DNA from: an uncultured archaeon
Lineage (GTDB): Archaea; Asgardarchaeota; Lokiarchaeia; Sigyniarchaeales; SOKP01
Direction of reading: 5' to 3'
Length of the DNA stretch: 64,000 nucleotides
Assembly: GCA_964486045.1 (NCBI GenBank)
Contig: CAZALK010000003.1
Location: 32,001-96,000, forward strand
Within the stretch, counting starts at the first letter, position 1, and each line of letters starts with the position of its first letter. Positions 4,235-10,079 of this stretch are shown here, in pieces. The translations under genes and the position numbers were made by a program. Below the pieces are notes generated by a model. That model searched no databases. It saw only the letters and a program-made list of their open reading frames with translations, and had not been told where the DNA came from.

Positions 4235-4876
4235 TTATATAAGTAATTTTTTCTGCAATTTTATATATTCATTATAGTCCAGAAATTCTTTTTCTACATA
4301 CTCAAAAACTATTTTATATAATTGCCTTAAAAGTTCTTCAGGAAAAGCTTTTTGTTCAAAAATAACCTCATAAACTAACTCTTCAGTAAGGATTTGAGCA
4401 TTTATAGATTGGTGGCTGAGTAAAAAACTCATCATCGCTTTATCCACTTTAGTTTTGATAAGCTTTTTTATGACATTCAGACTGATATCTCTCTTAGGAT
4501 CGATGAAATAGGGAAAATTCATGTCATCAAGGATTTTGATGTAGTTTAAGGAGTCTGTAATCTTTTCCACGCAATATTCTAGTGAACTTACGGGAAGATT
4601 AAATTTTTGACAATATTCTTTCTTGGTTTCATGAGCGGGGAAGCTAAAGGGGTGCCTAGAAATTATATAATACGCCCCTATAAAGAATTTGAACAAATTA
4701 TGAGGTATCTTTCTGTTGTTTCTTAAATATTTATATACAAGCGAAACCGTGTCAAGTAGAAAATTCTCGTTAATCTCAAATTGCTTTAAAAAATCTTGAC
4801 CATCTTTTAATAAATCAATGGTAATACGTTCTTTGGTGTTTGTTACTTCATATTCAGGAGTATAAAGTTCTAACAT
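4235..4876 (-). CDS. TFIIB/cyclin-fold-like hypothetical protein (ORF extends to 4945; MLELY start preferred)
   Basis: IGAYYIISRH...TKKEYCQKFNLPVSSLEYCVEKI resembles the cyclin-box repeat AAALYIACR..TQKEIA..VSEVTI of TFB. Confidence 0.5.
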   Translation of the reverse strand: MLELYTPEYEVTNTKERITIDLLKDGQDFLKQFEINENFLLDTVSLVYKYLRNNRKIPHNLFKFFIGAYYIISRHPFSFPAHETKKEYCQKFNLPVSSLEYCVEKITDSLNYIKILDDMNFPYFIDPKRDISLNVIKKLIKTKVDKAMMSFLLSHQSINAQILTEELVYEVIFEQKAFPEELLRQLYKIVFEYVEKEFLDYNEYIKLQKKLLI

Positions 4877-5124: not shown

Positions 5125-5589
5125 ATGACATCTGACACAGAGATAATCAATCAAGAAATAGACTTAGAATCTAAAAGAATAACTGTTAGTATTGATGAAG
5201 TAACAGATAAAATAATAGAAAATTTAATTGGTGTGAAAGGTAGATCAAAATCTTCTGTAATTTATCAAATAATTCGAGATTGGATTGATGACAATTCTGA
5301 ACTTATTCTAAATAACTGGGGTATAAATTTTGCTACAATAAGAAGACAAGTTATAAGTAAGTATAAAGAAGTTCCAGTTAAAAAAGAGCTTTCTGATTCT
5401 GAAATGAATGTTTTGAATCGACTTACAGAATTATTTAAAACAGTAAAAAGTATTAGTACGAAAGAATTGGCTGAGGAAGTGGATGTCGATACAAAAACAC
5501 TTAGAAATTTAATATTTAATAACCGTGTGAAATTAGAAGCAGCTGGACTTAAACTTGCTTATGAAGATGGCAAATTCTTTCCGACTTAA
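5125..5589 (+). CDS. Ribbon-helix-helix (CopG-like) plus C-terminal HTH DNA-binding protein
   Basis: KRITVSIDE...GRSKSSVIYQII (RHH) and ISTKELAEEVDVDTKTLRNLI (HTH). Confidence 0.7.
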   Translation: MTSDTEIINQEIDLESKRITVSIDEVTDKIIENLIGVKGRSKSSVIYQIIRDWIDDNSELILNNWGINFATIRRQVISKYKEVPVKKELSDSEMNVLNRLTELFKTVKSISTKELAEEVDVDTKTLRNLIFNNRVKLEAAGLKLAYEDGKFFPT

Positions 5590-5627: not shown

Positions 5628-5816
5628 ATGAGTTCAAGACGATTAGAAATGTATGAAAACATTGATGTTTCCCTGCTTGTTATCCCCTTTTCAAAGGTAT
5701 TTAAGCCCTATAAAGCAAACTTTATCTATTCTGGAAATGAAAATATTCCCTTTAAAGAAAGAGAAACAGAATTTAAAATGATATTTAGACAAGAATTTTC
5801 AGATGTTTTAAGATAG
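5628..5816 (+). CDS. Small paralog family member A (62 aa)
   Basis: DVSLLVIPFSKV...IYSGNENIPFKER...FKMIFRQEF motif shared with four nearby ORFs. Confidence 0.8.
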   Translation: MSSRRLEMYENIDVSLLVIPFSKVFKPYKANFIYSGNENIPFKERETEFKMIFRQEFSDVLR

Positions 5817-5941
5817 AAAACAGATCACTTTTAACATTACTACTTTACTTCAATCTGGTTTTATATTTTGATAGAAATTATATTTTGATAAAGAAATAGT
5901 TCAAAATTTTACCATATTTCCTTATATTATAACAATAGTAT

Positions 5942-5991
5942 TTAATGACATAATTGAGAATAAATATTTAATCTATAATAATTGTCATTAA
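5942..5991. promoter_or_regulatory. Inverted repeat TTAATGACA-N32-TGTCATTAA around an AT-rich TATA-like segment upstream of member B
   Basis: Perfect 9-bp inverted repeat at 5942-5950 and 5983-5991. Confidence 0.35.
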
Positions 5992-6017
5992 CTGTGAATA
6001 TTTGGTATTAAATAAAC

Positions 6018-6221
6018 ATGCTAAAAGATACTGTAAACGGAGAGCCAAGAGCTTTTTCAGAATTGATTTTTAATATTTCAAGTGCCATAATTCCTTATTC
6101 CAAGATGATTCAATCATCGAATGTATCAGATATCTATTCGGGTGAAGAAAGAATTCCATTCCATAAGAGAACTCCAGAATATATATCGATTTTAAGAAAG
6201 GAATTTGCAGTTATTTCTTAA
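6018..6221 (+). CDS. Small paralog family member B (67 aa)
   Basis: NISSAIIPYSKM...IYSGEERIPFHKR...YISILRKEF. Confidence 0.8.
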   Translation: MLKDTVNGEPRAFSELIFNISSAIIPYSKMIQSSNVSDIYSGEERIPFHKRTPEYISILRKEFAVIS

Positions 6222-6402
6222 TAATACCCAAATATTGAAGAATTCTTTAGAATTTAGGATAAAATTCAAAATCTCTTTTTCCTTCCATCTGTAGCTGAAG
6301 TTCAAATTTATAAGTTGTTTAAAGCAACTTTAAATCAAAAAATCAAGGTTTCACCTTTAATCCTATCTTTTACTGAAACATCCTCAAAAATCTTTTAATT
6401 TA

Positions 6403-7674
6403 TTGAGAATTAGATTTCAATATACAACCGAAATTAAGAGATTTACAGAAATGAAAGGAAATTTTGAGATTCGTAAATTAATTGAACAAGATCGTGAAGT
6501 ATACAAAAAGTTGATGCGATATGCTTTTGAAACAACCATGAATAGTTATGAAGATTTAAGATGGCCTTCAGAGAAAATACCTATCGATTGGCATTATGGC
6601 GCGTTTGATAAGGAGCAATTAGTAGCGGGAGTAGGTATTATTCCATTTGAAATTCGAATGCGTTCTCAAGAGTTTAACATGTATGGAGTTGGAGGAGTTG
6701 CTTCAAAACCTGAATATCGTAATCTTGGTATCATAAGAGAATTAATGGTAAAAATTTTTAAAGATTTATATGAAAATAATATCCCGTTATCTGTTTTATA
6801 TCCATTTAAGCATTTATTTTATGAGATGTTAGGATACAAACTTGTTGATGAACATTTTTCCTACGAATTTAATATATCGGATATTATATACAGAGAAACA
6901 GAGTATCACATGAAAGAAGTCGAAAGGATAAATGATGATATTATAAGTGTTTATGATCGCGCTATTTTAAATTTTGATTATATTGCTAAAAGACCTGAGA
7001 TTCAATATTGGAGAGGCTTATATAAAAACAACTACAAATTCATTTGCTACAACGGAGATCAACCTGTAGGTTATGTAATAATAATCTTTACCAAAAGAGA
7101 TGCTGTGTGGTTAGAAAAAAAAGATGCCATGTGGTTAGAACATCCAGAGAAAACAATATTAATCCAAGAGGCGTTCTGGCTTGATCAAACGGCTAAGCAA
7201 ACAATCTTTAATTTTCTGTGGAGTCATCGAGATCAACGAAAATATATAGTTGGAACTTTTTCTGCGCATGAAAATATAATAGATCTTTTAAAAACTCCCC
7301 GAATAAAAACTAGGTATATAGTAGATAATTCTCAACTGAGAATAATAGATTTAAAAGCGGTTTTAGAGAATCTGAAGTATCCATTTGATAATTTTTATAT
7401 AATATTTCATACAAAGGATGACTTTTGTCCCTGGAATGAAGGATTCTTCACCCTAACGTCAAAAGAAGAACAAATCAATGTAGAGTATCATAAATCTTCG
7501 GAAAACTCAGCAGATATCGAATTAGATATTAGTTATTTAGCACAATTGCTAGCAGGTTTTAGAACAGTCAATGATCTTTTAGAATTCGGTTTTGTTTCTG
7601 TAAATCCTGAAAAACTTGAGCTATTACAAGCTTTATTTCCATTGACAAATAATTATTTTCATGACTTTTTCTAA
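6403..7674 (+). CDS. Eis-family GNAT acetyltransferase with C-terminal SCP2-like domain (likely start ATG 6451)
   Basis: GVGGVASKPEYRNLGI, SVLYPF..FYEMLGY, DDFCPWNEG, LAQLLAGF. Confidence 0.85.
   Translation: MRIRFQYTTEIKRFTEMKGNFEIRKLIEQDREVYKKLMRYAFETTMNSYEDLRWPSEKIPIDWHYGAFDKEQLVAGVGIIPFEIRMRSQEFNMYGVGGVASKPEYRNLGIIRELMVKIFKDLYENNIPLSVLYPFKHLFYEMLGYKLVDEHFSYEFNISDIIYRETEYHMKEVERINDDIISVYDRAILNFDYIAKRPEIQYWRGLYKNNYKFICYNGDQPVGYVIIIFTKRDAVWLEKKDAMWLEHPEKTILIQEAFWLDQTAKQTIFNFLWSHRDQRKYIVGTFSAHENIIDLLKTPRIKTRYIVDNSQLRIIDLKAVLENLKYPFDNFYIIFHTKDDFCPWNEGFFTLTSKEEQINVEYHKSSENSADIELDISYLAQLLAGFRTVNDLLEFGFVSVNPEKLELLQALFPLTNNYFHDFF
7093..7140 (+). repeat. In-frame 24-bp imperfect tandem duplication in the Eis gene
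   Basis: aaaagagatgctgtgtggttagaa / aaaaaagatgccatgtggttagaa encoding KRDAVWLE-KKDAMWLE. Confidence 0.8.
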
Positions 7675-7858
7675 ACTCACTTTATTCCTGTTTCAAGATT
7701 TTATTCTTAATTTATTTAGAATTATCCCATAATTCATTGGAAAATGCGGAAAAGCCAATATTTTTTATTTAAAAACCTTTGGTTTTCTTTATTATTATAT
7801 AATACAACTTCATTAGATGTTTATAAGAATAATTTGATAACTTTAGTTCTCACTCGAT

Positions 7859-8086
7859 GTGAAAATCAATATGGTAATGGATGATAAGATTACAACTTTT
7901 CTTGAAATTATCGATGAATTTGAAGATGAATTTTATCCGGATATCTCAGCTGCAGTAATTTCTTTCTCAAATGTAGGTATTAAGAAAGAAGAACAATATA
8001 TTTATTATGGGTATGAACAAATTCCTTTTAATAAAAGACATCCTACATACCAGAAGATTTTCATTTATGAATTCTTACATAGTTAA
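7859..8086 (+). CDS. Small paralog family member C (75 aa)
   Basis: DISAAVISFSNV...IYYGYEQIPFNKR...YQKIFIYEF. Confidence 0.8.
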   Translation: MKINMVMDDKITTFLEIIDEFEDEFYPDISAAVISFSNVGIKKEEQYIYYGYEQIPFNKRHPTYQKIFIYEFLHS

Positions 8087-8177
8087 ACTACTTCTCTTAC
8101 AAAATTAAGAACTCAAGAAAAAAACTGTCTCTTTTTATATATCAATTAAGATAGTTCGTAATCTATATTATTTTAAA

Positions 8178-8492
8178 ATGGCAACTATGAATTCAAGAAC
8201 TATTGAAAAACAGGTTGAAGATTTTTTAGATAATTCATTTAACGCAGAGGATCACTTCGTTAATAATGAAAATCAAAAAAAAAAGTTTGTTTTACTCTCA
8301 AGACTCGTTGCAGATTTATTTAAATGTGAAAATTCAGCAGTTTGTTTCCATAACATTTCAAATTTAATAGTTCTAATCTTAAACATCTACAATGAAAAAT
8401 TTCCAGTAGATATATATTCTAATGGGAGAACGGGTTCGAAAAAAAAAAGCGACAATGACTTTAAACGTATAATCAGAGAGAATTTGGTATAA
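8178..8492 (+). CDS. Small paralog family member D, divergent (104 aa)
   Basis: C-terminal half NISNLIVLILNI...DIYSNG...FKRIIRENL keeps the family spacing but lacks IPF. Confidence 0.65.
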   Translation: MATMNSRTIEKQVEDFLDNSFNAEDHFVNNENQKKKFVLLSRLVADLFKCENSAVCFHNISNLIVLILNIYNEKFPVDIYSNGRTGSKKKSDNDFKRIIRENLV

Positions 8493-8607
8493 GAGTTGGA
8501 TAAACAATTTATTTTATCAGAAAACATCAATAAATTTGTCGGGTGTTCTCTCTTAAATAATAATAATATTATATTAAAAATAAAAAGAAATAAGTAAGGG
8601 GTTCAAA

Positions 8608-8826
8608 TTGAGCTTAAAAGTAGATTTTAAAAAAATTGTGAATATTGACCATGATATTGAAGAGGTTGACGTTTTTCAAGGTATATCTCAGTTAATCATC
8701 CCTTTCTCGGTTGTCTTTAATATCAATCACTCTCCAGAAATATATACTGGAGAGGAACTAATTCCGTTCAGGGAAAAAAATATAAAATTCAGGAAAATAT
8801 TAATTGACGAGTTTATTAATGGTTAA
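8608..8826 (+). CDS. Small paralog family member E (72 aa)
   Basis: GISQLIIPFSVV...IYTGEELIPFREK...FRKILIDEF. Confidence 0.8.
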   Translation: MSLKVDFKKIVNIDHDIEEVDVFQGISQLIIPFSVVFNINHSPEIYTGEELIPFREKNIKFRKILIDEFING

Positions 8827-9779: not shown

Positions 9780-10079
9780 TTAAAGTGACTTTGGCATAAG
9801 AAATATATTTAAACACATCGGACAAGAATTATATTTTAACAGCCAAGAATCTATACATGTAGAATGATATTGACTGTCACAGAATGAGCATTTTATTGTA
9901 TTATATTTACTTGAACTGATGTATTCATGACAAATTGTACATTGAATCTTTAGTTTTGAAGATTTCTCGTTTTTCTTCAACTTAATGCCACAAAAACAAC
10001 AGTAATTTAATTGAGACACATTCAATCCTTGAATTCCTCTCCCACAATTAGGGCAAAAATTAAATTTTGTTAAGGGCAA
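9780..10079 (-). CDS. Zinc ribbon plus RING-type finger; putative E3 ubiquitin ligase
   Basis: CPNCG..CFCG then CTIC...CSFC...YHSTCIDSWL...SCPMC. Confidence 0.75.
   Translation of the reverse strand: MPLTKFNFCPNCGRGIQGLNVSQLNYCCFCGIKLKKNEKSSKLKIQCTICHEYISSSKYNTIKCSFCDSQYHSTCIDSWLLKYNSCPMCLNIFLMPKSL

Follow-up and report, generated by a model that had tools for sequence, protein, structure and literature searches.

Short proteins at a conserved Lokiarchaeal locus and a previously unnamed protein superfamily

Asgard genomes carry many uncharacterised small genes, and how signals pass to transcription in these archaea is largely unknown. The window analysed here, a stretch of 64,000 nucleotides from an uncultured archaeon of the class Lokiarchaeia, contains five short co-oriented ORFs (A to E, Table 1). 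The original prediction described them as one array of paralogous microproteins, old and under selection, which share a motif and might act, for example, as interchangeable adaptors or inhibitors docking on one partner. The locus raises two questions: whether the five ORFs belong to a single family, and what such a family might do.

All five ORFs were present at the stated positions on the plus strand. When the 5.2-Mb genome was searched in six frames, A, B, C and E matched each other with E-values from 1e-7 to 6e-4, and each pair among them outscored all 2000 shuffles. By sequence comparison, these four are true paralogs. Their core reads S-x-x-I-I-P-F-S, about 10 residues, D-I-Y-x-G-x-E-x-I-P-F and then R-x-P-x-Y-K-x-I-L-x-x-E-F, with the residues Y, G, E, F, E and F conserved in 97–100% of 248 sequences. 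The conserved positions are mostly aromatic, hydrophobic, glycine or glutamate, the net charge is near neutral or acidic, and neither a Cys/His cluster nor a membrane segment was found in the family's sequences. B is closest to A-type members and exists in only some genomes (79% identity to its ortholog on contig L252), while the start of C, judged by orthologs, is probably ATG 7871 or 7877. Between the paralogs, synonymous changes have almost saturated (pS about 0.65–0.86), and the median dN/dS was 0.23 for the short forms and 0.18 for D (Nei-Gojobori, over non-independent pairs), not near 1. The picture of an old, selected family, with a motif kept while the DNA diverged, is thus borne out. 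No meaningful DNA repeats were detected between the copies.

Member D required more distant relatives to be placed. Its similarity to A, B, C and E was not significant within the window (shuffle p 0.01–0.7; E 3.3 against an HMM of the four), but with orthologs added it aligned with the short forms over 52 columns at an hhalign probability of 96% (E 3e-9), and in a further profile comparison over 48 columns at 97%. Genome searches also recovered intermediates, at L162 and L163, that join the helical extension of D to the loop of the short forms. On this evidence D belongs to the family only via its orthologs and these intermediates, so that the proposed five-way paralogy stands directly for four members and indirectly for the fifth. 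The N-termini, described as unrelated, are indeed variable in the short forms, but the N-terminal half of D is a conserved helical region.

A profile widened with D-like intermediates matched 123 of the 126 genomes of the window's family and exposed a third, helical form of about 100 aa, here called H. The superfamily thus comprises H, the intermediate D and the short forms of 60–90 aa, which consist of the C-terminal ~48 residues behind a variable, disordered N-terminus. H and D aligned over 87 columns with a probability of 94%; the direct similarity of H to the short forms is weak (E 0.002–0.03), and homology between them is therefore transitive through D. Read through these alignments, the short forms correspond to the C-terminal half of a helical domain that is older than they are and about 100 aa long. 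All 61 genomes sampled from the family had the H form, mostly in 2–6 copies, as did 4 of 4 genomes of a sister family in the same order, but none of 185 other genomes searched in the phylum. This nested distribution (H in two families, the D/H profile in 123 of the 126 genomes, the short form in 95 of them) suggests, as an order that comes from ranges and not from a rooted tree, that H came first, then D, then the short forms. Considering that D-like and longer helical forms range wider than those with IPF, the two IPF motifs were probably gained in the short forms, which reverses the earlier suggestion that D has lost IPF. The genome of the window holds about 11 copies in all, six short, one D and four H; two of the short copies lie outside the window, on contigs C1 and C23.

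Searching Asgard genomes with a profile, as had been proposed, located the short form in 95 of the 126 genomes of the window's Lokiarchaeia family, with 1–8 copies each, in none of the 24 other genomes of the class and, with a deeper profile, in none of 155 other genomes of the phylum. Since the short forms are confined to one family among the genomes searched, no bearing on eukaryote origins is shown. Related loci lie in Promethearchaeota (Lokiarchaeia), including Loki_b32. Exhaustive searching yielded 242 clusters at 50% identity, almost all stand-alone, and the best 150 of these measured 47–120 aa, save one probable chimera. The core of A is 72% identical to Lokiarch_17380 (KKK44542.1), which is annotated as hypothetical, just as had been expected of such ORFs, and a contig that carries this gene repeats the five-gene order of the window, with both A and B and with the gene inserted between B and C.

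The motif had been recognised from no named family, and none emerged: the short, D and H forms matched no family in Pfam, NCBIfam, PHROGs or PDB sequences. Rfam gave no match, a feature search of the ESM Atlas gave no usable one for the family, and we found no paper on the family or on Lokiarch_17380. A resemblance to a UPF0147-like ORF (E about 2) was dropped as chance, and one member carries the JGI label 'methyl coenzyme M reductase subunit D', which found no support from Pfam or NCBIfam. In short, Pfam gave no match, the ORFs were not fragments of one long gene, dN/dS was not near 1, and homologous arrays do exist in related genomes, with the same gene order on another contig. Taken at the level of sequence, this is a real, previously unnamed Lokiarchaeal protein superfamily.

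Table 1. Coordinates in the window of the five ORFs, their neighbour genes and promoter-like elements.
Feature	Position	Strand	Basis or remark
CYC, 213-aa all-helical protein	4235..4876	-	Anchors the locus; divergent from the RHH gene
RHH + winged-helix regulator (RHH-wHTH)	5125..5589	+	Pfam RHH_1 and HrcA wHTH at cut-off
Member A, short form, 62 aa	5628..5816	+	Six-frame genome search; copy directly after the RHH gene
Member B, short form, 67 aa	6018..6221	+	Six-frame genome search; extra copy
Eis-like GNAT acetyltransferase	6403..7674	+	Pfam Acetyltransf_9/17 and SCP2_2; variable cargo, not a family member
AT-rich promoter-like block with TATA-like element, upstream of C	7761..7803	+	8 orthologous upstream regions aligned
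Member C, short form, 75 aa as called	7859..8086	+	Six-frame genome search, orthologs
BRE/TATA-like element upstream of D	8116..8143	+	Conserved
Member D, long form, 104 aa	8178..8492	+	N-terminal helices and shared C-terminal module, without IPF motifs
Element upstream of E	8527..8558	+	AAATTTGTCGGG, followed at about 10 nt by a TATA-like box; almost no variation among 8 orthologs
Member E, short form, 72 aa, TTG start	8608..8826	+	Six-frame genome search, orthologs
Zn-ribbon + RING-finger gene	9780..10079	-	Pfam zf-RING_2; converges on C-D-E

The conserved order at this locus is CYC (minus strand), the RHH-wHTH gene, A, variable cargo, C, D, E and the converging RING gene, so that the synteny with the CYC and RHH genes, proposed earlier as a check, was recovered. 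The five ORFs are not contiguous: the GNAT gene splits A and B from C, D and E. The interval between A/B and C depends on the genome, with other genes replacing GNAT at many loci, and the RING gene is the right-hand neighbour in most loci with C, D or E. Within the GNAT gene of the window, a 24-nt tandem duplication occupies positions 7093–7140. C, D and E each follow their own conserved promoter-like block, which supports separate regulation of these three and agrees with the separate expression predicted for the members. The element upstream of E is essentially unique in the genome, and as a motif it defines no genome-wide regulon. Orthologous subtypes hold fixed positions, and the term interchangeable is accordingly a poor fit.

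A signalling context was found for some H-form subfamilies, and not for the five genes of the window. In one single case, in the genome of the window, the H domain forms the C-terminal part of a receiver-domain protein (C16:39236-39928; L201:5237-5929; E 3e-8). This fusion may be a recent read-through, given that the closest homologs of the fused domain are stand-alone. The closest relatives of the fused H lie just downstream of genes for MCP-signal membrane proteins (three loci) or of a receiver gene, and the operon of another H pair also contains a receiver gene and a TFB-like gene; H loci adjacent to a receiver gene number two. Most H copies have unrelated neighbours, and no receiver fusion of D or of the short forms was seen.

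A second unnamed family of small helical proteins, c13, is present in 117 of the 126 family genomes. Among 19 c13 loci from five genomes, 7 had short forms within 1.5 kb and 4 were fused to the D domain, and the genus g3 lacks both c13 and recognisable short forms. Examples of c13 are found at L001:7193-7468, L146, L147, L255, L257, L259 and L261. The similarity of c13 to the N-terminal helices missing from the short forms was not significant, as 5 of 100 shuffles reached its score. The frames of the D-c13 fusions (L255:1204, L257:1204, L259:1198, L261:1974 and L264:1294) have no ATG, GTG or TTG near the start and carry an ATA or ATT codon after an SD-like GAGATGA, suggestive of a non-canonical start that is conserved.

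With a probability of roughly one half, we propose by analogy that the short forms lack enzymatic activity and bind proteins, as adaptors or titrators that work in signalling or transcription control and would fold on their partner. They may have arisen through loss of the N-terminal helices and gain of the two IPF motifs. In the AF2 model of E the N-terminus is disordered, helices are short and the C-terminal helix is confident, with a pTM of 0.36; fold searches with the short-form model found no match in the PDB or the atlas, a result that, with a model so small and of low pTM, does not imply a new fold. As modelled, a short form is probably not compact alone, and it would thus fold on a partner, although a monomer model of low confidence for so small a protein is weak evidence of this. 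Such proteins could then serve as adaptors or as competitive titrators, as has been proposed for other stand-alone output domains in archaea. The leading candidates for the partner would be the long forms and the c13 family, whose members recur next to short forms or in fusions with the D domain. With distinct promoters, individual paralogs would be switched on under distinct conditions.

Plant and animal microProteins of the Id or LITTLE ZIPPER type are short and retain a single interaction module from a longer relative, with which they could titrate that relative or its partner. The short forms likewise amount to one module, the C-terminal ~48 residues, of a longer paralog, D, although there is no homology to those microProteins and the long forms here lack a known DNA-binding or effector domain. 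Closer in kind are HalOD1 and the death-domain-like NitrOD2/4/5, lineage-specific output domains of archaeal response regulators (PMC5847659). These are small domains of narrow range with many stand-alone copies and rare receiver fusion; that source presumes that they act by protein-protein interaction and holds that archaeal two-component signalling works mainly through protein-protein contacts. A small stand-alone domain, several copies per genome and a narrow phyletic range were all found here, whereas there was no sequence match to the family HMMs of NitrOD5 (PF11537) and NitrOD2 (PF18550), and the genes of the window are shortened derivatives never seen fused to REC. The superfamily does not appear in the accessible part of the HalOD1/NitrOD census (PMC5847659). 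Judged by this analogy, the short forms are in kind a truncated variant of the archaeal multi-copy, stand-alone output-type domains. With an alignable superfamily, a candidate partner family and a conserved locus, their role becomes a testable question.

An unlikely but still credible explanation is that the microproteins are inhibitors or assembly factors of CYC, following a p27- or MAT1-like logic, and so modulate a cell-cycle regulator or an alternative TFB-like one. Identities of A correlate with those of CYC at 0.73 and with those of RHH at 0.44, a sign that A and CYC are inherited together, and even distant genera have degenerate short forms behind the CYC/RHH pair, but co-inheritance of A and CYC is expected by linkage alone. 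CYC is highly conserved and occurs in 111 of the 126 family genomes, usually once; its range is wider than that of the short forms, as it is also found in other Lokiarchaeia families and in genomes without an adjacent copy. Residues ~24–113 of CYC may adopt a cyclin-box fold, an assignment that draws on three weak signals: the best PDB match of the CYC profile was cyclin B1 (E 0.027), the match to a TFB repeat was in register (P 0.07), and TFIIB/TFB chains were common among the weak Foldseek rows of a poor model (pLDDT 43), whose fold searches were otherwise uninformative. CYC had no Pfam match. Compared with cyclin B1 and TFIIB/TFB, it weakly resembles one cyclin-box repeat, and its assignment as a TFB/TFIIB was rejected, as it falls outside the PF00382 matches of the genome and shows no Cys zinc ribbon in the alignment. 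The microproteins are partly disordered, as are CDK inhibitors such as p27, but they lack a CKI motif and show no sequence similarity in Pfam or the PDB to known cyclin-binding proteins or CDK inhibitors. The genome has eight TFB paralogs, and the CYC domain recurs inside its 370–830-aa proteins resembling winged-helix regulators.

Slightly less probable is that the short forms are accessory subunits of nucleic-acid machines (Hef/Ski2-like helicases, RNA polymerase or chromatin) or bind nucleic acids directly. In favour of this, a second conserved cluster of short forms lies between a Ski2-like and a Hef-like helicase gene. Such helicases are universal, however, whereas the family is lineage-limited, and the short forms have no DNA-binding motif and no net positive charge.

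It is doubtful that A and its paralogs act on the RHH-wHTH protein as co-repressors or anti-repressors. The RHH gene is probably co-transcribed with A, which begins 38 nt past its stop codon and lies directly after it in nearly all genus-level loci examined, but most short-form copies have no RHH gene nearby. About nine types of the RHH gene, with less than 50% identity between types, are scattered over the CYC tree. Between close relatives, RHH alleles only 25–40% identical are swapped while both neighbours are conserved and A stays 58–84% identical; two genomes with 98% identical CYC have RHH proteins 25% identical and A proteins 84% identical. These swaps were defined at the RHH gene of the window and at L065, L066, L072, L033, L039, L073 and L252. 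The DNA alignment of L065 and L066 breaks across the RHH gene together with its promoter, and three loci retain remnants of RHH genes that were displaced, which in some genomes lie downstream. Identity of A was the same within and between RHH types (0.695 vs 0.695). A thus shows no co-variation with the type of RHH, evidence against a partnership specific to one RHH allele, and the swapping of RHH alleles independently of A makes the RHH protein a weak candidate for the partner. The Sulfolobales cell-cycle regulators aCcr1-3 (PMC9976878, PMC13199686) are likewise RHH regulators in a conserved locus; the RHH protein here carries a winged helix in addition and is subject to allele swapping, and the comparison concerns this neighbour and not the microproteins. 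Apart from the microproteins, both the CYC gene and the RHH regulator with its swapped alleles offer leads on how Asgard archaea control transcription or the cell cycle. Equally doubtful is a eukaryote-like module in which the putative cyclin-box protein, the allele-swapping RHH-wHTH and the RING protein would be controlled by separately expressed, partly disordered microproteins, with receiver input via the long forms.

It is quite improbable that the short forms are defence proteins, antitoxins or anti-viral decoys diversifying beside a variable island. The variable cargo between A and C and the hypervariable RHH gene next to A would fit such a setting, but the copies occupy fixed loci, show stable vertical inheritance and evolve under purifying selection, and we saw no PHROG family, no match to a viral contig and no cognate toxin.

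That the ORFs are spurious, are pieces of one long gene or are duplicates in decay is scarcely credible, since frameshifted short-form copies at a few loci and a module placed N-terminally in longer proteins of two genera stand against a dN/dS of about 0.2, conserved starts, stops and promoters, clusters almost all stand-alone and a five-gene order repeated on another contig. A dedicated search for longer fused forms, a weak test, found none, and the genome search gave two fusions. In these two, L160:5323-6297 (with the module twice) and L187:2504-3286, the short-form module is N-terminal in proteins of 260–324 aa with an unnamed C-terminal domain. Separately, the genome of the window contains a family of ~55–65-aa ORFs sharing SYY[DE]WQ (C14:3855-4040, C14:149574-149780, C8:131556-131723 and C2:7692-7898), and both copies on C14 have an upstream element resembling the promoter of E.
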